Of a DNA stretch of 64,000 nt, positions 2,551 through 58,431 are shown piece by piece. The stretch is taken from contig OX597819.1 in NCBI GenBank assembly GCA_951406725.2, positions 16,678,001 through 16,742,000 of the forward strand, written 5' to 3'. The DNA comes from Octopus vulgaris. Lineage: Eukaryota. Each line of letters opens with the position of its first letter. The stretch's first letter is position 1. The notes beneath the pieces are model-generated. The model was not told where the DNA came from. It worked only from the letters and a program-made list of their open reading frames with translations, and ran no database searches. Both the position numbers and the translations under genes were made by a program.

Positions 2551-2643
2551 CTTGCCATATTGGTTAAAGTAATTTCTGACATCATCAACAGTAGTAGATG
2601 CTGATAATCCACCAACAAATATTTTCTTTGTACGGGTCACCAT
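2551..2643 (-). CDS. msi: Internal coding exon of a Musashi-family RNA-binding protein (start of RRM2, RNP2 motif IFVGGL)
   Basis: Encodes [31 protein letters not shown], near-identical to the MSI1/MSI2 segment [29 protein letters not shown]. Flanked by tcttcttttttcag| acceptor and AAG|gtaagc donor; 93 nt, phase 0/0. Confidence 0.95.
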
Positions 2644-8198: not shown

Positions 8199-9712
8199 TA
8201 TATATCACTCTATCTGAAGCAGGGTGAAATTTGAAAAATTTAAAATTTGGGAGAAGGGGAATTTGAGGTGGGGGATTTTAAATTTGGAAAAGGTGTTTTT
8301 TAAAAAAGTTTCAAAAAAGTCCAAAATCTTAAATCAGGCGGGGGTGGATTTTAAAAGGTGATTTTTTTTTGCATATTCGTAATCTCCAATATCTAAAACG
8401 TAGAAATCATAAAAGATTTCTTTTAAAAAAATATGCATTTTTCAAGGAGAGGTGCGATTCTGTATTAGTCCCCAAAGTAGTCCTACATATCACCAAAAAA
8501 GACTGAATGGTGCCGGCTGTAATGCCTTTGATTATAAATCTGCGAATCTGTGCCGTCATGGGCGCCCCAGGACGAAATGTCACTGTGTGTGTGTGTATAA
8601 AACATTTTATCGAATTCGAGAAAAAAATGTCACAAGAATATTTCAATAACTGGCTTTATGTTTTTTGGATGGAATTTTGGAAGAGCTGTTACCACAGAGG
8701 ATGGGAGCAAAATGTAAAAATAAAAAATGGCGTGGGGAAGAGAAATCACTCAATTCCTTGGCTCCGTTTGCATTCTCATTTAAAGATATTGAATAAAATG
8801 GTAGTTATTTTAATATATATTGTTGTAAAGTTTTCAATTAAGTGATGTAATATTATTCAATTAAATTAAATTTCTTTATTTGTAGTAATTAAATGAAACA
8901 AGATAACGAAAACTGTGACCGTTTTCCATCCACTATTTTATTATTTATTCATGGTACGTCTCCTGTTAAAAAGCCATGACCTATTTATTATATCGATCAT
9001 GTTTAAGAGGCTGATAGAAACGTATTGGGGGATATAATCGTACCAATTTGATGAAATTATGAATGATAAGAGAAGGGACAAAATTTCATGTAGTATTTAG
9101 TTGTAATGCATGAATCTTCGTGTCGCCGATGTCCACTTAAACTTTCATACTTCTGAGATCGAAAACAATAAATAAATAAAATCAAGAAGCCATGGTCTGT
9201 GTTTTGGATGAAGATGCCTCATACCTCATAGGAAATGAAAAAGTTACAGGAGTAAAGGAGGAAGGAAGGGGGTAAATAGAAAAAAAAAATTGAAATTTTG
9301 AAAGAGAATTTGTTTTCAGAATCGATTGTAATTTCCGTTATCTGAAACAGGAATACTATAAAAAATAATATCAGTGATAATAAATAAAAAGAATTTTTTA
9401 AATGTAAAAGATTTCCCATGAGGTGTGTGGGGTGCAGTGCCTAATCCGAGCTTCACTGAGGTAAGTAATGGATCGATTGAATCTAAACTAAAAGCAAGGA
9501 AGATTAATTTAAATAAGGTTAGTCGATGGAAATTTTTGTTTCTTAATTAATTATTTCTTAATAATTGGAGAATGTGCATATTCTGTTCAAAAGTAAGATT
9601 ATCTGAGACATTAAACACAAGTATTTATTGTATTCTTTGTCACTGCAAATGTGTCGTCTGCTTCTTTGGGGCTCGAAGAAAAACTGAGGGGCTCAGCTTC
9701 TATGAACCGTAA

Positions 9713-10030
9713 CGAGCAGTATCGCCAGGCGTTGCTTGGGTTTGTTTCGAACCCTTTAGAATTGGAATTTTTGGAAAAGTAAAGATTTTGCATGATGTAG
9801 CTTGTTATTCTCTTTAAGTGAACATTTTTCTGGTTGAAATACACCGAAAAATGGCGAAACAGCAGTCAAAATATCGTAAAAATGGGGATTTTCATAGAAA
9901 ATTTTTGGTGTTAACATGGTCCGATTTGAATTTTTTCTTCTGCGAGAGGAAGAGCAACCCTTCTATCATACTCTCAATTTTGGTCAACTTGCGCCTCAGG
10001 GTCTCGAAGGAGATAGTGTTTGTTAGTCGA
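9713..10030 (-). mobile_element. Helitron-related 3' fragment (second subfamily)
   Basis: Same 3' hairpin motif (cagtatcgccaggcgttgcttggg on plus); inverted copy at 10905-11155. Confidence 0.55.
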
Positions 10031-10904
10031 AGGCTACCAAACATGATCGATATAACAAATAGGTCATGGCTTTTTAAAAGGAGACGTACCATGAATAAAT
10101 AATAAAATAGTGGATGGAAACGGTCACAGTTTTCGTTATCTTGTTTCATTTAATTACTACAAATAAAGAAATGTAATATTATTTAATTGAATAATATTAC
10201 ATCACTTAACTGAAAACTTTACAACAATATATATATTAAAATAACTACCATTTTATTCAATATCTTTCAATGAGAATGCAAACGGAGCCAAGGAATTGAG
10301 TGATTTCTCTTCCCAACGCCATTTTTTATAGAATTACGATTCTGAAAAAAATGTATTTTTACATTTTGCTCCCATCCTCTGTGGTAACAGCTCTTCCAAA
10401 ATTCCATCCCAAAAAACATAAAGCCAGTTATTGAAATATTCTTGTGACATTTTTTTTCTCGAATTCGATAAAATGTTTTATACACACACACACACACACA
10501 GTGACATTTCTTTCTGGGGCGCCCATGACGGCACAGATTCGCAGATTTATAATCGAAGGCATTACAGCCGGCACCATTCAGTCTTTTTTGGTGATATGTA
10601 GGACTACTTTGGGGACTAAATGCAGAATCGCACCTCTCCTTGAAAAATGCATATTTTTATTTTTAAAGAAATTTTTTTATGATTTCTACGTTTTAGATGT
10701 TGGAGATTACGAATATGCAAAAAAAAAAAAATCACTTTTTAAAATCCACCCCCGCCCGGTGGAATTTTTCGGAATTTTTTTAAAAAACACCTTTTCCAAA
10801 TTTAAAATCCCCCACCTCAAATTTTAAATTCTTCAAATTTCACCCTGCTTCAGATATAGAGATATAGATAGATATGAATAAACGGATAGGGATAAATAGA
10901 CAGT

Positions 10905-11155
10905 ATTCAAATCGGACCATGTTAACACCAAAAATTATTTACAACAAAAAGGTGTTTTTTTTTTCTATGAAAATCCCTATTTTTTTACGATTTTTTCACT
11001 GCTGTTTCGCCATTTTTCGGTGTATTTCAACCAGAAAAATGTTCACTTAAAGAGAATAACAAGCTACATAATGCAAAATTTTTACTTTTCAAAAATTCCA
11101 ATTCTAAAGGGTCGAAAAGAAAACAAGCCCGAGCAACTCTGGGCTATACTGCTAG
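10905..11155 (+). mobile_element. Helitron-related 3' fragment
   Basis: Ends CCCGAGCAACTCTGGG-CTATACTG-CTAG|T; reverse complement of 9713-9930. Confidence 0.6.
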
Positions 11156-13209
11156 TTACTTAATAATTCTAACAATTAACTGATAAGTAAGATTAGCTGA
11201 GACATTAAACACAAGTATTTGTTGTATTCTTTGTCACTGCAAATGTGTCGTCTGCTTCTTGGTGCACGAGGTAAAAACTGAGGAGTTCAGCTTTATATGA
11301 ACCGCTTCCGTTATTTTGTTTTCATAATTACTTAATAATTCTAACAATTGATTGATACTAGTGCCGTCTCTTGGGTTTCTTCAGACAGTAACACTTCAGT
11401 TGAGATTAAAAAGAATCTTCCTAATACTACTGCCTTGCGCTTTAAATTTGGAGATGAAGGTCTAAGCTTCAATGGCGACATTATTCCTTCGAGAAGCCGT
11501 GGCGTCGGGTATTGGTAATTTTGAGAAGGGTATAATTACTGAAGTCTATCCACTGTTGGTCTATTTCCTCATCTTTCTGTAAAATGCATGTTATTTTTTA
11601 AAAAAAGATACAGGTACATTCTTGATGAAATTCGAAAAATGAAGTTTCTGTTTTGGAGGCGCTTCGGATAATTCCTCCTGACTACAATCACTGTGTTTTT
11701 TACGGAAAACTTTGAAAAGCATAATTATGTAATATGTATTGAATAATGAAGTTGTTTAGCATTGCACAAAAATTTATTTCAGTGAATTTCTCTGAGCAAA
11801 AACAAAAAGGTGGTGAGTGATTCAAGTTACAGCACAAGCAATGAATGTTTCTTCCTTCCCGGGTTGGTGGGGATGAAACTATTCGAAATTCCATGTCCCC
11901 CACCCAAATTTTAAAAATAATTTATTTACTTAGTTTAAAAAATTATTTACTTTGCGTTTTATTTACTTTGTTCGAAAAAATATTATTTCATTTTCTTTGA
12001 AATACAAACACGAGCAAGTCGTTGTAGGATCGACTACTTACGACTAGCTTGCGCGAGTGCGAGCACCGGGACCACTGTTCGCTAGTAGTACCAGGATAAT
12101 CATAATCTACACCCCCAAAAACGTATCTCGGAAAAATCAATAAGAAATATGCATTTAACGAAGGATGGAAAGTCGTCGGAGTGGGGATATTTAAAAAAAG
12201 TTTTCAATTTTTTTTTTCCTTCATATAATTGTTATCTACATTATCTAAAATGTATTGCAAAGAAATTTCACTGGAAAATACGTATTTTATAAAGTTTATA
12301 GAGAAGTAAAATCAGGTGGTGAGAGGCACAGTTTTGTAAAAAAAAAAAAAAAAAAAAAATGCCATTTGAGAGAAGTAAAAATGTACAAGTCATGTACCTA
12401 ATAGTTTATTATTATATAAGTGACTGTTACCTTTCCCTAAAATCTACAGCCTTATATCTAACTTAGAAATCAATAACACACATTAAAGTGTGCGTTTCTT
12501 TTTAATCTGATTTTTGTTCCACTGGGTATAACAGCTGATGATCAATATACTACTGCTATTAATAGTAATGATAATAATGACAATAATAATTACCATAATA
12601 ATGATTTCTAACATCAATAATAATGATTTCAATGATAACAGCAGTAAAAATAATATGCCAAATTTGTTTATTGATTAAAAACTATAAAACACACTGGAAC
12701 TAGATCTGAGAAGAAAGAATTTAAATAAGCCATAGATTGTTGTTGGAGAGAGAAGCTTGGTGTATATAATCAGATATGTATGGTGGTTGGAGTAGTAGTA
12801 GTGGTGGTGGTGCAATTAATAGTACTGCCATATATGGTAAGGTTGTGATAATCAATGAGGTAAAAACTATTAATTAGTGGAAAATTGTAATTGACGACTT
12901 AACTAGAGGGTATTGATAACATTATCCGCACGAGTAAACACACGGCATATATATTCCATGTCAACCCACATGTGAATACACATGTGTGAGTGCACGTTAT
13001 ATATTATGTGTTTGTGTATGTATGTACAAGTTTGTAAGCGAGAGTGTAAGATAATATTACATGTGATATATTTGTTTAAACCGAGATTCTCCTTGCTTCT
13101 ATTGTTTCATGCTTCCCGATTTTTTGTCAGTGGAGTATAAATATATTGCATATATGTTGTCACACATGGCTGTTTGAATTAAATACACTTCAAGAACGAA
13201 CGCAAGTAC

Positions 13210-13254
<45 letters not shown>

Positions 13255-13599
13255 TGTGTGTGTAAGAAAGTCTGGCGTTGATTTGCCGTGAACAATAAAA
13301 ATAGTTGAAAAAAAAACTGGTCGACAGAAATGCTGGTAAAATTTTCCAAACGAAATAGAGACGAACACATACACTTCATACATACAGACATATGCCAAAT
13401 TTGAGATTTAGCATTGGCCTCATTATTCATTCAGTCTTAAAATAAAATCAACAAGAAGTGGGTTAATTAATAAGAAGCTGGATACAACGGGATCAACCCA
13501 TGCAAAAGGGTTATGAAGAAAAGAAAAATTAAAAAAAAAAATTATGAGTAGCAAATATTAATATAATCTGTTAGAAAGACAGGTAAACTTTCAACTTAC

Positions 13600-14388
13600 A
13601 GCATGTTGATGTAATGGAGATGTGGCAATAGAGGAGGGGTTAGAGGGTAAGCTCAGTATAGGACTGGATAGAATAGCGCCGCCACTAGCAGTAGGGTGGA
13701 GTTGGTGGGGTAGTTCCGGCATCGGAGTAGGAACGAGATAGGGCTTATTGTCGATGAGAGGGCTTGGGAGAGCATAGTCGTTGCCCAACATCAGAGGAGG
13801 CGGTTGCATCATCTGAACGGGTCGGGGAAATCCGAAAGTCATCCCTGCGTTATCGTCCGAGATTGGTAACCGAGGGTAGAGTGAAACTGGTGCTGGGATG
13901 GCTCCATATGTAGTTTCACAATTAGGAGTTACGAACAGAGGGTTCTGATGGAAGTTAACTCGTCTCGTAGGGTCAGTTCTCATGGGTAAAACGTTGCTAT
14001 CCATGCTAACGGGAAGTGGAAGAGGAACAGCACTTGCTGATGGAGTCGTTGCTGTTTGGGGTGACTGTGATGGAAGTGGAGGTGGCGGAGGAGGTAGCAT
14101 TACGTTAGACGTGTAACCACTTGGCCTTGGTTCATGATACCCTAGCATGGTATTTAATGGTAACTGGGATTGTACCTGTGTAACAACAACAATTGGTTGC
14201 GAATTATTCTTCTCATCTCGGACTCTGAATGGGAAAGAATCTGGCATTCTATCCCTTGTTACTTCTTGAGTGTTATGTCTGAGTGTTGGTAAAGCCGGGT
14301 GGCCCACACCTTGTGGGAAAGTCTGGGTTCCACTAGAAGTAGCTTCAGCACTCGTGTGGTGGTTTGGTTCCTTATTAATAGTTTCCAT
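13600..14388 (-). CDS. Candidate alternative 5' coding exon of the Musashi gene (263-aa Pro/Ser/Thr-rich, probably disordered N-terminus)
   Basis: 789-nt unique, GC- and CpG-richer open frame from ATG at 14388 (in-frame TAA just upstream). Ends ...CATCAACATGCT|gtaagt, a consensus donor in phase 0 that matches the RRM2 exon acceptor. Confidence 0.7.
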
Positions 14389-14619
14389 CAACCTGACTTT
14401 TTTTTATCACAGGATACCGAATTGTCGATAATATCAGAATGTTTGAAAGCCTCCTCAGTTCTCGATATTTTAGTTTCAACTTAAAAAATATATGTATATA
14501 AATCTTCGCGTTTTCTACAAAATATATGGAGAGAAAAAGAGGAAAAAAAAGAACAAAATAGTTGGATGGATAAAGCAACTAGGTAGAAGTATTTGGACGG
14601 AATGAAAAGGCTACGGGAT

Positions 14620-14720
14620 TGTACCATGTGATATATGGGGGAAAGGGAAGGGGCCACACCTAAAAATATAAGTAAGATTATTCCTAATCAGCCAACTGGA
14701 CCTTTAATTCTATTGGTCAA
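14620..14720 (-). promoter_or_regulatory. Possible internal promoter for the 13.6-14.4 kb exon
   Basis: Unique sequence about 230-330 nt upstream of the ATG with CCAAT (plus attgg near 14712), a TCACATG E-box-like site and a pyrimidine/C-rich tract. Motif-level evidence only. Confidence 0.2.
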
Positions 14721-17700
14721 AAACTGGACTGAATGGTATTGTAGTGAGGGGTGAAAGATGAATAAATTGTTTTTGTAGAATAGATGTGGTTAGAATAGCT
14801 TTGGGCTGGGGTGAGGTCAGTCTTGGCGGTAGCAGAGATGAATAGTGGCTGGGGTGTATTAGGGGTGGAGAAGAGACGACCAGTGGTCAGCATGTCGGTT
14901 AGGGAGATTAGAAAACAGCCCCATTAACACTCCTTGAAAATATTTTTGTTTTCAAGTTCTGGTTGTTGTGATGATAGTGGTAGTAGTCGTAGTAATACGT
15001 ACGAACAAAATAGTAGTGCTTGTTTATGGTAGTAATTGTAATTGCTGTGAATATTTAACTGCAAGTTAATCCTGAACAAGTAAGCCTATGGTCAAAGGCA
15101 TTCTAGTTATGACCATCCATCCTTTTTCATTCACTCTACATTATGCCATGTACTCTTTTCATGAAAGAGTTCGGTGCACTTTGAGATAGTCGTACTTGCT
15201 ATTACTAACAAGATTACTTCGTTGGCATGCCCTAAGTCAACCTTGAATGAACAAATATATGGTCAAAGAAATCTCAGAATAGCGGTGCTCTAACATGACC
15301 GCAGTTCCACGACTGAAACCATAAATTTTTTTTTTAAATCACATTCTTTTTATATACTAAGGAATGCATTGTTCAATATATCCTTGTTTAAAAGTATAAA
15401 GAGTGATTTGCTGCAGATATGGCTGCTATATATAGCAAGTCAAACGACCACGTAGGGATGCTGTCCTTGTGTCTAGTAGTAGTATTCTAACCACTACTGG
15501 TAGTTGTAATAGTGAGGAGTGGATCAAGATGGTAGTTATGGATGATCTATTTGCGTTGACTGTGTTAATAGTGATGATGGTGATGGTAACTGATTGTCAA
15601 TAACAGAATAGCTGAACTGCTTAGGACATTGACACTGGTCATGGTGTCGTAGCGGACAGGACAGGTAAATGTGTGTGTATGTGTGTGTCTGAAGAAACAG
15701 GAAATAAGAGAGAGAAATAGTAGGTGTGGGTGATTACAAGGTTAGAGTAATAAGTAGGTGTTTATGTTGTTATTGAGTGGGCTGATGGTAGTCATTATGG
15801 CAATGGTAGTTAAAAGTAACGTTTACAATTACAGATAAGTAAATCTAAATTTTAAAGAAATATTATCTAAGGGGTAAACACCCTCAACATATCAGTGTCT
15901 CTGAGTGTGTATGCTGTGTTTATATAATTTATTCATCCTTCTTTCGTTTTGCTCTTTAACTCCTGGTGCAATCATGTAGACAGATTCATGAATATGTCTT
16001 GTGGGGTTTAAACTTATCAGAGAGAGCCCTTCTCTATTCAAGATCATAATTTCTGTGGGGCTCATGCAAGCATTAAAAAAAAAGTAGATATTGAAACAAT
16101 GATTGTCTATTGTGGCATAATCAAGTATTTTAAAGAAGTCCTTGAGTTCCCCATGTGACTTCATGCACATGTAACTTCTAACATACCATGGATTGACCAA
16201 AACTGCATAAAAGTGAGGTGGAAACTTTGTGGAAACCTGATAAATGGACTGCATGTGTAATTCAGATAGTCAGCCTTGCTGATTCTACTGTGGATTCCAT
16301 AATGGATATACATGTGGAATACTAAGCCACTTCCATTATAATCCAATAAGTAGGTAGCTTAACTGAAATACTCATGGTAGAAACAAAGGGAGTAGCCATT
16401 TGTGGTTGAATTTTGTTTTAATGTCCTTTGAAAGTTTGTAACATTTTTATAGTTAATTTTTCCAAAAATTGTTATGAATTTTGTAATTGGCATGAAAATA
16501 ACATCTATATAGAAGTTAAATACATGTATGTATACACACACTACCCACATAGATGCAATCAACTGAATGATCACTAAATTCTAACTTCCCTATTGTATAG
16601 AGAAATTATATTATGTTCCAACCTAATGTAGAAAGAGTGGAACATGATATCTCAATGATTCAGAAACACATGCTGTTGTATAATCCCAGCTCTCATCAAG
16701 GAGCCTTATTATCAAAGTCCTTGCTATGACCATCTCGTTTAGTCATAATGTTTCAAGGACTATATGGTTCAATGTATCTTTTATTGTTACTATTTAGCTA
16801 GATTCAGCAAACTTTATGCTCAAATGCATTCCAGCTATGACCATCTAATGTGCCTTTTCCATACTTAAAACACATTATTTGAAAGTGATTTTGCTGCTGT
16901 TTCATCCATGTAGAAGTCAATCATTGGTTTAAAGATACACAATGGAGAGAGAATAAGGGAGATAACATCAAACAGGAATATCATTGAAATAATTTCGAAG
17001 GAATATTAAGATGCCACCATGGCTTGATTTGCCAGGCTCTCTTAAGAGTATTAAATGCTGAATAAAGCTGAGGAGTCCCCATAATATATAAGGCATTGAT
17101 ACATGTGATGGTCATGCCAGTCTCAACAGCAATAAAAATGTGAGTTACCATTAAGATTCAAAACTAAATGTCTGAGGGAAGTTGTACATGGTTGCTTGAC
17201 ATGCTAAAAATAACAGCTGAATCTCCCTTAACCCACACTATAAAAGAAAACATTGTATAAGGTGATCCAAGATTCACTATCTAAATAAATGAAGAGATGG
17301 TCTCGACTGGAAAAACAATTTGGTCATAAACCCACTGTATCATGATTGACCTAGAGCTAAACAGCAAAAAAATTTTTTAAGCCATAATCATAGTGCACTA
17401 CAAGCCAAAAGGGGCAGCCTTCTTCATATTACATACCCCTAGGTATACTATATCTAAATAAACACACATGGCTGGAATTTTGGCTGACCAAGGACAAACA
17501 GACAAGCAACAAAATACTACATCACCTGACAGTAACATATATCAAATCCCATTAACCTATATACAACATCAGAGATACGTTCACTCAGGTAGAAGTGATG
17601 GGGCAGTCTACTGAACAAGAACAGCAGGAAAACAAAATAGCAGAGAGGCATAGGATAGGAAAGCAAAAGAAACCTTATGGTTACAGGAAGCGCTGGAACA

Positions 17701-29426: not shown

Positions 29427-29915
29427 CTATAAACCAAAATCTCTATAAATATGTAAGAAATATAAGTAAAAGGTATAAAGAGATAAAAAGCTTGTGCGTG
29501 GACACAATATAGAAAGCAAGTTCTGTCTGTAGTCTTGGGGGGGGGGGGGGCACCAAAAACGTAACAAATATTTGGCCATATGTGGGCATGATCCGAAAAG
29601 TTCAGTCCTTGAATTCAGACATGTAGCAGGGTCTAAGCCTCTTTTCCAGATGAGCCATCTTTCCTTATCACATAGACCGCACTTTCCACTGCCATTGGTG
29701 TAGGGCTTACACTTGGCTAAAATCTTCCAATGGATGTTGTAACTGACACCTTTATCTTTTAATGACCATATATGACTGGATAATTTGGTCGTTTTCCTTT
29801 TATCCCAGTGCCTAAAGCTCAAGGTGTGATTATTGAACCTGGCCTTGAAATTACCCTCAGTAAGGCCTATGTATTTCTTTGTCGAAACCGTGTCTTTAGT
29901 GGGTATAGAGTCCAC
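29427..29915 (-). pseudogene. 5'-truncated Penelope-like element, GIY-YIG endonuclease C-terminal region
   Basis: YIGLTEGNFKARFNNH...LSSHIW.LK...W.IL....PY....KCGLC..E..LI...LNSRTEL...CPH, the GIY-YIG plus Cys/His pattern of PLE endonucleases. Confidence 0.85.
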
Positions 29916-30666
29916 GATGGTTTACCGTTTTTATCAATATATATATAAATATATATATATGAATGATAAAAAAGTGATGGTGGTTATGTGACAATAGTAA
30001 ATATATACCTGTATTCTTTTACTGGTATCAGACTGCTCTGCAGCTGTTTTGAGACATTGCTTTTAAAAGATTTAGTTGATTGTGTTAACTGGTATTTATT
30101 TCAGCCTGATGCTTATTTTATTAGCACCTATTTGAACCACTAAGTTATAGGACATAAAAAACATTTTGTAAACAATATAAAACACTGACATACACACACA
30201 CACACACACACACTTTGGTCCAGTTCTGATAACCAAAACTTCTACTCAAGGTATTGGACAACTTGAGGTAGAAGCTTTCCAGATGCTATGCAATTGGTTT
30301 GAAACTGGCACTGCATGGTTGTGAATGAAACTTAACTAAACATGCAACCTTGCTTTTATGTGTGTGTGTGTGTGATCATTTTTAGTTTCATTTTCTGTGG
30401 TGGCATGAGTTGGACAGGTTATCAGTTTGAGTGAGTTCTTGCTTGAGGTTTGTGCCCTCCTAGGTTCGGGCAAGAGAGCATACCATTTCATCCATTTTCA
30501 TTTGGCATGATTTCCACAGTTGGCTGTCCTTCCTTCCACTCACCACTTTACAGAGTTTACTGGTTACATATTTCATGACACCAGCACTAAAGAGGTTGTC
30601 TTGATTTCAAGTAGATTAAAAAGCCATACAGACACATATTCATGCATATGTGTGTGTATTTTGTAC

Positions 30667-36500: not shown

Positions 36501-37191
36501 TATAACAGATTGAATACCTGGAGTATAGTGTATTAGTCTGGTGGTGTTGGAGTGTTTTGCAATGAATGTACATGTCTTAGAATCTATTTAGTGGCTGTTA
36601 TTGACTAAGGCCAGTCTTAACAAATCTGTCATTTATTCAGACAATCTATCTCAAACTACATTATCTGATATGTTGTTCCTACTTTAGAGATGGTGGAGTG
36701 TGGGCTATTTACTGCTGTTTCTAGCAAGTGGATTGAAACGTAGAAGCTCCCACAAATAGCTCCAGGTAAATAGTGGTAGGTGTGGGGAGAGAGAGAGAGA
36801 ATTAGGCGTAGTTGTATAAGTTGAAAGCTCATTTGCATCAGTAAACATGTACTAGAACTATTTGAAACTATAGTTTACAGCCATGCCACAGCAGACTCTA
36901 GACTAAACATACACAGACAGTACCCCCACAGGCATATGTGTGTGTTACATCCATTTGCACAAAGTCCAATAATGCAAACAGCCAATTGAAATTTGGAGAG
37001 TATACACACACACGCAGTATTAAAAATTCGGGGTTTGCATATACAGGTTATCTATTGTGTGTGTGTGTTGAGCAGGTTAATAGGATTAATATTTTAAATC
37101 CATATAGTGACTGGAGATGTGTGTGTGTGTGTGAAAATATATATCTGTGTGTGTGTATATAAATATATATCTGCATGTATATATGTATATA

Positions 37192-38480
37192 CGAGGGGCG
37201 TTCAATTAGTAGTGCCTCTGACCCACTTGCAGTTATTTGATCTAGCTGAAATTTTGCATGTGCAATTATCTATATCTCTATAGATTAAGTGGTAAATTAC
37301 AGCTCTGAACTAATTGTGGTTTCTGATTTACAGGTGTTTGAACTGAGTCAAGTGTGAAATGGAGCCTGTTGAGTATTGGGCAGTGATCCGCTTTTTATAT
37401 TTGAAAAGATGCACACCACGGGAGACTTTTGATGAAATGAAAGTAACTTATGGTGATGATGCCCCATCATATGACCTTGTAAAACGCTGGCATTGTGAAT
37501 TCAAACATGGTCGGAACTCTGTGGAAACAGCTCCCAGATTTGGTCGCCCCCTACTGCTATTGATGAGGCATCTGTCCAAGTTGAGGCTGCCATTTTGGAA
37601 GATCGATGCATAACTATTCGGCAAATAGCCCATGAGGTCAAGATTAGTACCGGGTCTGTGGAAACCAATCATTCATGACCATTTGCATATGCAAAAGGTG
37701 TCTGCCAGATGGATTCCCAGGTTGCTCACACCTTTCCGGAAGCAAGAATGCGTCGAGTGCTCGAGGATGAATTTGGAGATGTGCCAAGAAGATGAGTCAA
37801 CATTTTTCAAAAGACTGATTACACAGGATGAAACCTGGGTCCATCACTATGATCCAGAGACAAAAGCCCAGTCAATGCAGTGGAAGCACCGTGACTCACC
37901 TCCTCCAAAGAAGGCAAGGGTGCAGCCCTCCACTAGCAAGGTCATGCTCATAGTCTTCTGGGACCAGGACGGAGTAGTGATGACAGATTTCCTGGCAAAG
38001 GGTACCACAATTACAGGAGCCTATTATGCTTCACTTTTGATGAAATTAAGAGAAGCTATCAAAATCAAGAGGCGGGACAAGATCAGCAAAGGCATCCTCC
38101 TCCTGCAGGACAACGCTCCAGTCCACAACTCGATGGTCGCCAGATCAGAAGCACAGGTGTGCGGCTATGAACTCCTCCCCCATGCCCCTACTCTCTTGAC
38201 CTTGCACCCTCGGATTTTCCCCTCTTCCCAGCCATGAAGTTGTTTTTGAAAGGAAAGCGTTTCCCAGATGATGCGGCCTTGATTTCTGACGTCACGTCGT
38301 GGTTGGAGGACCAAGCTGGAGTCTTCTACAAAAACGGTCTCCAGAGCTGCATCAAATGATGGTAGAAATGCGTAACTCTGGGTGGTTTCTATGTAGAAAA
38401 AGACTAATAACTGTGCCAAGTTTCGTTGCTCTACTGCTATGGGAAGTGGGTCAGGGGCATTACTTATTGAACGCCCCTCG
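37192..38480 (+). mobile_element. Full-length mariner DNA transposon (Himar1/Hsmar2-like), 1289 bp
   Basis: About 37-bp TIRs (CGAGGGGCGTTCAAT(T/A)AGTA(G/A)TGCC(T/C)CTGACCCACTT) flanked by TA on both sides. Confidence 0.95.
37359..38407 (+). pseudogene. Frameshifted mariner D,D34D transposase
   Basis: HTH N-terminus (AVIRFLYL..., VKRW...F..GR), WIPRLL, QDETWVHHYDPE, QDNAPVH and Y-S-x-DLAPSD motifs split across ORFs 37359-37613, 37632-38237 and beyond; premature TGA near 38357. Confidence 0.9.
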
Positions 38481-38680
38481 TATATATTTACATGTATGTA
38501 TATATGTGTATATATATGTGTGTATGTGTATATATATATATATATATATAAATCCTTGTCCCATGCACTCCCATGAGTGTGATATATACTTTCGGGATCT
38601 GTTCCATCAATATGACAACTTTAACATGAAATAATTTCTAAAATACAAAATTTTGTCAAAAACCTTAAGAGTAAATCCTG

Positions 38681-39348
38681 GGATCTTTTCGAAATTCTAG
38701 CTAACTAAAATATTTTAAACTTCGTATACTTGTAGAATGTGTTTATAAAACATCTTTTTCTCTTGGCTTTATTGAGAAAATCCTATAGTTTGTAACACAT
38801 TTGGTCTTTAATTTCTTCAATTTCAACCAATCACTAACATCTATTGAGTTAAAAAGCATTCTGTGCCGTATGAATATGTCCCTCGTTTAAGAAACACATT
38901 GGGTTTACTTACATTTGTGAAGAAAAAAAGATACCCCCCCCCTAAATCTAAAATAGATTGAAATGCAATAGATCGATTCTAGGGTCATAATTATGGGTGA
39001 CAATTTCATGACACCTATAATTATGACCCTAGTATCGATCTATTGCATTTCAATCTATTTTAGATTTAGGGGGTGGGGTTATCTTTTTTCTTCACAAATG
39101 TAAGTAAACCCAATGTGTTTCTTAAACGAAGGACATATTCATATGGCACAGAATGTTTTCACCTCAATGGTTGAAATTGCTGAAATGCAAGAAATTAAAG
39201 ACCAAATATGTTACAAACTATAGAATTTTCTCAATAAAGCCAAGAGAAAAAGATGTTTTATAAACAGATTCTACTAGTATACGAAGTTTAAAATATTTTA
39301 GTTACCTAGAAATTATGTTAAAAACTGCCATTCAAAACGAAAAGATCC
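38681..39348. mobile_element. Palindromic (fold-back) non-autonomous DNA transposon, Merlin-like
   Basis: Termini GGATCTTTTCG / CGAAAAGATCC; 8-bp TSD AAATCCTG (38673-80 and 39349-56); the two halves are reverse complements almost to the centre (~39005). Confidence 0.85.
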
Positions 39349-42300: not shown

Positions 42301-42559
42301 AATTGGCTATATGCTATTCTCATATTTGTGGCCTTGTGCTCCTATTAGAAGCAATTAGTAGAAATGGGAGAACAATGGACATTTAAAAAAATTGTCTTTT
42401 ACATTCTGAGTTCAAATCCAACTCAAGTCAACTTTTGATATGCATCCTTCCAAAGTGGGGGAGTGGTGTGTGATAAAATAAATATTGGTCACATACTGGC
42501 ATTGGTTAAATTGACTGCAGCCCTGCCTCTACCCAAATCTTCGGTACTTATCCAAATTT

Positions 42560-42672
42560 GGCCATATCACATTGAATGCACCAGTTCTCATTGATTCACT
42601 GAAGTTATAATGTTGAGTCTAGTTAGTTCTTAGATGGGTGACTGCTTAGGAAACCTTGGTGCTGTAAGCATC
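42560..42672 (+). pseudogene. 5S rRNA pseudogene (5'-truncated, decayed)
   Basis: GGCCATATCAC.TTGAATGCACC.GTTCTC...GAAGTT...GTTAGT.CTT.GATGGGTGAC.GC.T.GGAA...GGTGCTGTAAGC is collinear with metazoan 5S rRNA; many CG>TG/CA changes. Confidence 0.85.
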
Positions 42673-56800: not shown

Positions 56801-57089
56801 ATATATGCAATTCAGATTAAGATAAAATATACTATTTCTGAGATATTTTGAAAACAAACATCTTCTAGAGTTTTAGTATTATTAAGATATATATAAATAA
56901 CTACCCGACAGCTCCACTTCACTAAAGAAATGAGTGGAAATCTAACCGTTGAGTGTTAGATAATAAGACATTAAGACAATATGACTCTCCAAGACACATA
57001 ATTTGCTTCAACACATGAGTTCACATAAATAATCTTGCAAACCAGATACAAAGACGAAATTTTTTCTATAAGAAGGTAGAAACTCAGTA

Positions 57090-58431
57090 AGAGGTAGAAA
57101 CTCTATAAGATTTACCCAGTGTAAGCTATGGACACATAAGAGGTGCAGCAATATCAAAGGAAGGCTAACTAGGAAGATAGTTTTTGTATGTGGCAGATGC
57201 TCAGGAGCAATAAACACTGAAAATGCGCAGAGAACAACTTCCGCCACATTCCAGGGAGAAAAACTAGAAGTAGTTGATAGCTTCCATTACCTAGGTGACC
57301 AAGACAGTAGCGGGGGTGGGTGCTCTGAAAGTGTAGCTGTTAGAATAAGAATAGCCTGGGCAAAGTTCAGGGAGCTCCTACCTCTGCTCCCTGAAAGGGC
57401 CACTTGCTCAGAGTAAAAGGTAGACTGTATGATGCATGTGTACGAACAGTCATGCTATATGGCAGTAAAACATGGGCTGTGACTGCTGAGGACATGCGTA
57501 AGCTTGCAAGGAACATGGCCAATATGCTCCGCTGGATGTGTAATGTCAGTGTGCATACTCGACAGAGAGTAAGTGCCTTGAGAGAGAAGTTGGACCTAAG
57601 AAGCATCATATGTGGGGTGCAAGAGAGACGACTGCACTGGTATGGTCAAGTGGTGCAAATGGATGAGGATAGCTGTGTGAAAAAGTGTCACACCCTAGCA
57701 GTTGAGGGAAACTGTAAAAGTGGTAGACCCAGGAAGACCTGGGATGAGGTTGTGAAGCACGACTTTCGAATATTAGGCCTCACTGAGGCAATGACTAGTG
57801 ATTGAGACCTTTGGAAATATTCTGTGCTTGAGAAAACCTGGCAAGCCAAGTGAGACCATAGCCTGTGGCCTATGCCAGTGGTTTAACCAGTCCACTTAGG
57901 CATACCTTTCTTTCATTGGACACTGAACTCTGCTTGCGAAGACCTGCTGAGGCAAGTGAAATCAAAATCAAATTCGATGACAGCACCGCATGACTGGCAT
58001 CCGTGCTAGTGAAGCGCAAAGAGCACTATCTGAGTGTGATCGTTGCCATGGCTACTGACTGGCCTTCATGCCGGTGGCACATAAAAAGCATCATTCGAGT
58101 GTGATCGTTACCAGCGTCATCTTACTGGTACTTGTGCCGGTGGTATTTGAAAAACATACGAGTGAGGGCGTTGGCAGTAGCGCTGGACTGGCTTCTGTGC
58201 AGGTGACACATGAAAACACCATTTGAGCGTGGCTGTTGCCAGTACTGCCTGACTGGCCCTCGTGCCGGTGGTACATAAAACTTGGAGTGGTTGGCATTAG
58301 GAAGAGCATCCAGCCGTAGAAACTCTGCCAGATCAGATTGGAGCCTGGTGCAGCCATCTGGCTCACCAGTCCCCAGTCAAACCGTCCAACCCATGCCAGC
58401 ATGGAAAGCGAACGTTAAATGATGATGATGA
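57090..58431 (+). mobile_element. 5'-truncated RTE-clade LINE (PHD-like Cys/His motif, post-RT domain, 3' UTR, (ATG)n tail)
   Basis: CKLWTHKRC...CGRC, EVVDSFHYLGD, RIRIAWAKFREL, RTVMLYGSKTW, RRLHWYGQV, GRPRKTW; the 3' end is the ccatgccagcatggaaa..cgttaaatgatgatg motif seen throughout the window. Confidence 0.9.

Follow-up and report, generated by a model that had tools for sequence, protein, structure and literature searches.

The window, i.e., the whole 64-kb stretch of Octopus vulgaris DNA analyzed here, holds on its minus strand the 93-nt exon that opens RRM2 of Musashi and, upstream of it, a long proline-rich open reading frame (ORF) inside a transcribed and apparently unannotated exon (cf. 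Table 1). Musashi governs RNA programs in neural stem cells and photoreceptors. The peptide encoded by the 93-nt exon matched, by eye, 31 of 31 residues of the Octopus vulgaris protein CAI9723882.1, and in mRNA this exon is flanked by the exon ending RRM1 and by the next RRM2 exon, which places it in the Musashi gene. In the RNA runs X11 and X18 both of its ends were spliced, one to the 42-nt exon that closes RRM1 and the other to the exon that follows, and X7 showed the 3' side; loose contig ends at this exon, read by hand, translated to the flanking Musashi exons. No further exon of Musashi or of any other host gene was found in the 64-kb window, and no RRM1 exon lies between the ORF and the RRM2 exon. 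Provided that the assembly is correct, the intron ahead of the RRM2 exon is therefore longer than 61 kb. The original prediction, made from the letters alone, had placed an RRM2 exon accepting phase 0 about 11 kb downstream of the ORF, and this was borne out: the intron between the ORF donor and the RRM2 exon measures 10,956 nt, on the same strand and with phase 0 on both sides.

Table 1. Features of the window, with strand and supporting evidence
Feature	Position	Strand	Evidence or remark
Musashi exon opening RRM2, presumed partner	2551..2643	-	93 nt, phase-0 acceptor
Main donor GTAAGT, phase 0	13594..13599	-	X7 contig end; P0122 has the same A-V-S-stop
Coding stretch of the alternative exon, proline-rich, 263 codons	13600..14388	-	ORF, P0122, RNA cover
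Inner donor CAG|GTACAA, phase 0, 71 codons past the ATG	14170..14175	-	X11 record 8, exit at 14176
5' leader of the first-exon form	14389..14594	-	X7 contig 14594-13600
Polypyrimidine tract and TAG acceptor, entry 14514	14515..14541	-	Tract score; X11 record 8
Likely internal promoter region (activity inferred)	14595..15500	-	X7 depth step, CpG edge
Mariner-type transposase remnant	37629-38237	+	Pfam Transposase_1, E 2.5e-24
Solitary 5S rRNA-like copy	42554-42670	+	Rfam RF00001, 56 bits

The ORF extends from an ATG at 14388-14386 to a GCT codon ending at 13600 (789 nt, 263 codons). It is preceded by an in-frame TAA (14406-14404) and followed directly by GTAAGT, a phase-0 donor, and then by an in-frame TGA, so that the predicted layout, with its own ATG behind an in-frame stop and a phase-0 GCT|gtaagt end, agreed with the coordinates throughout. 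The minus strand of the window has just 14 GTAAGT sites. Among 7,487 stop-free frames counted across the window, that of the ORF ranks first with 270 codons (the runner-up, with 202 codons, belongs to a transposase), and shuffling the bases of the ORF 20,000 times never left it open. The first ATG has a T at -3, while a second Met codon (Met48, at 14247) stands in a better Kozak context. No ATG is present in the leader (14594-14389), and 11 in-frame Met codons lie ahead of the Met of the RRM2 exon.

RNA evidence was taken from four runs of four studies (X7, X11, X15, and X18), throughout as assembled contigs. In X7, a run of unrecorded library type that contains spliced Musashi exons, one 996-nt contig covers 14594-13600 at a depth of 42.5 with two differences from the genome. 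Its final letter is non-genomic, i.e., it leaves the genome exactly at the 13600 donor, and the depth in the intron bin 13102-13592 was 0 in X7, X11, and X15. Above 14594, the X7 depth drops 12-fold, from 42.5 to about 3.2-3.4. The contig continues for 80 nt beyond the 14514 acceptor without being spliced there and then ends, which fits a transcript starting a little further upstream, in intron sequence, although a contig end cannot reveal a start. In X11, a 368-nt contig (record 8, depth 5.4) consists of 16 foreign letters, the stretch 14516-14176, and 11 foreign letters, and thus this single contig enters at acceptor 14514 and exits at inner donor 14176. X15 and X18 gave exon pieces at a depth of 2-5 only, the same as intron pieces. 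By run, the full exon was therefore seen in one of four and the spliced internal form in one of four, the other two being uninformative. RNA and DNA differ at 13918 (silent) and 14052 (Ala to Thr); these sites were handled as alleles and not as RNA editing. The stretch 14594-13600 is hence a real, transcribed exon, and the X7 contig agrees with the original prediction in that the 13600 donor is used and that transcription appears to start upstream of the ATG in unspliced sequence.

Among 1.84 billion 50% representatives, the only homolog of the ORF was P0122, a 260-residue sequence present in Logan only and 82% identical to the window ORF. P0122 was likewise the only hit among near-length proteins, and longer proteins gave none; two other representative matches (5e-5 and 8e-5) were unrelated repeats. 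P0122 keeps the Met start, the frame, and the donor position and ends in A-V-S-stop. Because this ending equals a read-through of the same donor, P0122 probably derives, on its sequence, from unspliced DNA of another octopod. The two sequences differ by 47 substitutions in 258 aligned residues, 43 of which are reachable by one base, and by five indels, all of them one-codon deletions in P0122, with no stop. The ORF and its donor position are thus retained in a second source. At this distance, neutral DNA stays free of stops 15% of the time, and three to nine frameshifting indels would be expected under neutrality (from the local repeat spectrum, in which 43 of 53 indels are not multiples of three). 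The joint neutral chance of seeing neither a frameshift nor a stop is 1e-5 to 6e-3, depending on the assumed indel rate and to be read with the fact that P0122 came from a protein search able to find open frames only. By eye, three of the indels fall within or next to short triplet repeats, a setting in which 3-nt slippage is natural. The residue changes were no more conservative than expected under neutrality (P 0.10-0.14). This comparison suggests that the frame is constrained and the sequence itself relaxed, as would be the case for a disordered region. Pfam and Atlas yielded no distant homolog, P0122 peptides had no match in metagenome contigs, and no protein joining the new N terminus to an RRM was found in the searched collections. 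As the window ORF itself is absent from the protein collection searched, the lack of homologs from squid or other molluscs argues only weakly for lineage restriction.

These data bear on one objection, namely that the ORF is a chance or decaying frame in leaky intronic transcription, without function. Low depth in three of the four runs and the missing Pfam, Atlas, or distant homologs would fit it, but a frame that none of 20,000 shuffles kept open, with sharp exon boundaries in two runs and maintained at 18% protein divergence, largely refutes this explanation, and we consider it very improbable.

The likely partner of the 13600 donor is the exon at 2643. The check for junction reads was answered in part: X7 demonstrates donor use, but the 13600-to-2643 joint was not among the 15 of 32 joints listed. 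Pruning of a minority branch during assembly (42 versus 380) may account for this. In X7, the RRM2-exon contig extends 41 letters upstream, ending in AG, and those letters are not from the new exon. The letter that follows each donor (13600 and 14176) in the contigs is not a G, which is what an exon starting with ATG would give and is at most a slight hint. With this joint unseen, the ORF might belong to a separate small nested gene or be spliced to a partner other than RRM2, including a 265-residue product that ends at the TGA just past the donor. An X18 contig (13464-13636, depth 3.3) indeed passes the 13600 donor unspliced, P0122 ends at the equivalent stop, and the ORF has no similarity to the Musashi C terminus. 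On the other hand, the X7 contig stops precisely where the GT begins, its last letter being non-genomic and cover downstream being zero, P0122 carries a perfect GTAAGT at the same codon, and strand and phase are those of the single exon that lies downstream within the window. A nested gene or a foreign partner is, in our judgment, quite unlikely.

The original prediction had dismissed a cassette exon, since the nearby cag|GTTG (14392) lacks a pyrimidine tract and does not fit the phase. That description was accurate (40% pyrimidine; 84% of the 3,471 AGs are equally rich), but the conclusion did not hold, for the acceptor 14515|14514, 126 nt upstream of the ATG, had been overlooked. It is 84% pyrimidine, which ranks it in the top 0.5% of the 3,471 AGs, and X11 uses it together with the inner donor 14176, so that a hybrid first/internal exon is probable. 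Entry at 14514 in phase 0 leads to a stop after 12 codons, and internal use would therefore be that of a poison cassette, assuming a phase-0 RRM1-end exon upstream. Poison exons of RNA-binding protein genes are cassettes that carry an in-frame stop. The octopus exon shares this feature in its predicted poison role, but it also carries a long ORF with a conserved frame. One may then ask whether the exon is mainly regulatory, either as a poison cassette after the RRM1 exons or as a 5'UTR-like start with translation only from the RRM2-exon Met, the long frame giving little or no protein. The X11 splice sites, the early stop, the neutral look of the residue changes in P0122, and the weak context of the first ATG all speak for this. 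Against it stand a frame that has stayed open across 47 substitutions and five indels, the unspliced entry into the exon in X7, and an X7 leader free of ATGs followed by 11 in-frame Met codons before the RRM2 Met; we therefore regard a mainly regulatory role as unlikely.

As to the encoded residues, proline makes up 17.9% of the 263-residue frame. AlphaFold gave a pLDDT of 44 and no elements for this part, in keeping with the predicted disordered N terminus, albeit from a shallow alignment of two sequences. The claim of many PxxP motifs was not upheld, as 8 were observed against a shuffle mean of 8.1, i.e., chance level. Class I and II SH3 ligand motifs are defined by basic flanks ([RK]xxPxxP and PxxPx[RK]), and neither is present in the window ORF or in P0122. 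With PxxP at chance level and no such flanks, an SH3-ligand adaptor is not supported. The motif LPPPP, which we take to be an EVH1-type ligand, is kept in both sequences. The new exon has no Pfam match, RRM included, and Rfam found nothing at the ORF locus. Searches of the Atlas gave no more than leads (best scores 0.79 and 0.75).

The ORF had also been described as CpG-retaining. Its CpG o/e of 0.66 agrees with this, but the property is not particular to the ORF: a broad block at 4-15.5 kb has 0.57-0.90 against 0.21 over 15.5-64 kb, and it consists in part of young repeats, 4-12 kb being a high-copy repeat by read depth. Octopus transposons are reported as unmethylated in the available text of PMC9476566. 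For these two reasons only 12-15.5 kb of the block is informative, and the block as proof of a promoter was rejected in part. The CpG o/e steps from about 0.5 to 0.14 at about 15500, just upstream of the new exon, which is consistent with a methylated gene body that ends at an internal promoter. A CCAAT lies at 14716, within the putative promoter region.

Taken together, these findings led us to hypothesize, with a probability of roughly two in three, that the exon in the >61-kb intron is an alternative first exon spliced in frame onto the RRM2 exon, and that the predicted isoform has RRM1 replaced by a 263-residue, proline-rich, likely disordered N terminus; the main reading of the original prediction is thus probably right. 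An internal promoter near 14.6 kb would start a transcript without an upstream ATG, translation would begin at the ATG at 14388 or, through leaky scanning, at Met48, and the 13600 donor would join the exon at 2643, phase 0 to phase 0. Use of the inner donor 14176 would give a short version of 71 residues. The predicted isoform would retain RRM2 together with the complete C-terminal effector region and would lack the tandem RRM1 and RRM2 of canonical Musashi, presumably binding single UAG motifs without two-domain avidity. Its predicted length is 369-576 residues, varying with the splicing of the C terminus. A separate tissue-specific promoter may drive it, as is thought for the short Rbp6 forms of Drosophila, and the tail probably serves as a low-complexity module for interaction or localization, with selection acting on its openness and not on its precise sequence. 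Main-promoter transcripts that enter at 14514 would stop after those 12 codons, and the exon would thereby double as a minor poison cassette.

What a single RRM might do depends on how affinity is divided between the two domains. The earlier statement that RRM1 gives most of it is disputed: it has the backing of a review (PMC7982713), but SPR in the part available of PMC11542179 gave RRM2 a KD similar to that of RRM1 (25 versus 47 nM on one RNA), the tandem having a longer residence. In another report one RRM is >5-fold stronger, both preferring UAG (PMC12136788). Because isolated RRM2 binds UAG RNA near the KD of RRM1, a one-RRM isoform would be a lower-avidity binder and not a dead protein.

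A single-RRM Musashi as such is not novel, contrary to what had been suggested. Four RRM2-only transcripts (C, D, E, and F) are annotated for Drosophila Rbp6, whose layout is a 42-nt exon, a 35.9-kb intron, and a 93-nt exon; the short transcripts survive a 5' deletion and are inferred to be forms of eye, brain, and testis, according to the accessible portion of PMC3507872. Fly and octopus thus have in common a giant intron between 42-nt and 93-nt exons, in which the short fly forms presumably start. The same portion of PMC3507872 describes no long coding first exon, whereas the octopus exon would add 263 (or 71) proline-rich residues and has a used acceptor. Human MSI2 variant 2 and MSI2a-d swap the N terminus via an alternative first exon in an intron (PMC5599597, PMC7982713); as far as these accounts go, they keep both RRMs and exchange about 20 residues, unlike the octopus form, which would lose RRM1. 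Hybrid exons, which are first in one transcript and internal in another and start near a 3' splice site, are described for human tissues in the available text of PMC11797052. The octopus exon resembles them in that its putative start lies within about 80 nt of 14514 and that this 3' splice site is used in a transcript (X11, one contig), but differs in that its two uses would have opposite coding outcomes, a new isoform versus an early stop. A preprint reportedly also concerns hybrid first/internal exons.

Among the 120 best of 1,694 Musashi-like proteins, none was without an N-terminal RRM start. Of the 32 loci closest to Musashi among 80 metagenome loci, 28 have an RRM1-end exon upstream, three are genomic with an intron at that point, and the last, L026 (1-150), is a spliced transcript in which a purine-rich 5' piece other than RRM1, with two or three short in-frame Met codons, is joined at the same RRM2 Met. 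By its sequence, L026 appears to be a further RRM2-only form. Fly, octopus, and L026 suggest that one-RRM Musashi forms from this intron recur across animals, by which the role of RRM2-only Musashi becomes a general question. Short, mutually unrelated cassette peptides occur at the RRM1-RRM2 junction in many animals (P0127, P0040, P0065, P0079, P0099, and P0120), and since they sit exactly there, exons have been gained repeatedly in the RRM1-RRM2 intron. The 13-residue cassette of the cephalopod-like Musashi P0127 and the oyster cassette had no match in the window.

What is new here is the long predicted N terminus and the probable dual use of the exon, RRM2-only Musashi being known already; the finding is thus at the isoform level and not a new system. 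No account of an octopus Musashi isoform with a 263-residue proline-rich first exon was found in the main texts of the open-licence literature, and since the new N terminus occurs in no protein of the searched collections, current octopus gene models likely lack an isoform. If coding, the exon would represent a young, lineage-restricted disordered domain with a constrained frame and an unconstrained sequence. We put forward only tentatively, and consider rather doubtful, the bolder idea that octopods built this 263-residue disordered domain from intron DNA as a substitute for the Musashi RRM1 in a single tissue-specific isoform, and that the same hybrid exon acts as a switch: its own promoter would yield a one-RRM protein with a proline-rich tail, and its inclusion in the long transcript would destroy the two-RRM form. 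If this were true, LPPPP could tie mRNAs to actin.

The window contains several other elements. The Mariner remnant (cf. Table 1) is bordered by 73-nt inverted arms at 37156-37228 and 38444-38516, and the 5S rRNA-like copy is probably a pseudogene. Two ORF remnants, at 29427-29921 (minus strand) and 57072-57805 (plus strand), had no Pfam match at E 0.01; we presume them to be a GIY-YIG (Penelope-type) and an RTE-type LINE fragment, respectively. Two large and young inverted repeat pairs, 8260-9004/10039-10823 and 9769-9882/10982-11095, lie in the CpG-rich high-copy block at 4-12 kb, which separates the new exon from that of RRM2, and have arms that are mostly 92-98% complementary; the inverted copies within 8260-11095 could pair in pre-mRNA. 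Finally, a near-perfect 620-nt palindrome (foldback) at 38692-39314, within the Musashi intron, folds into one hairpin (-424 kcal/mol, z -50) and is a candidate long double-stranded RNA substrate for A-to-I editing in the pre-mRNA.
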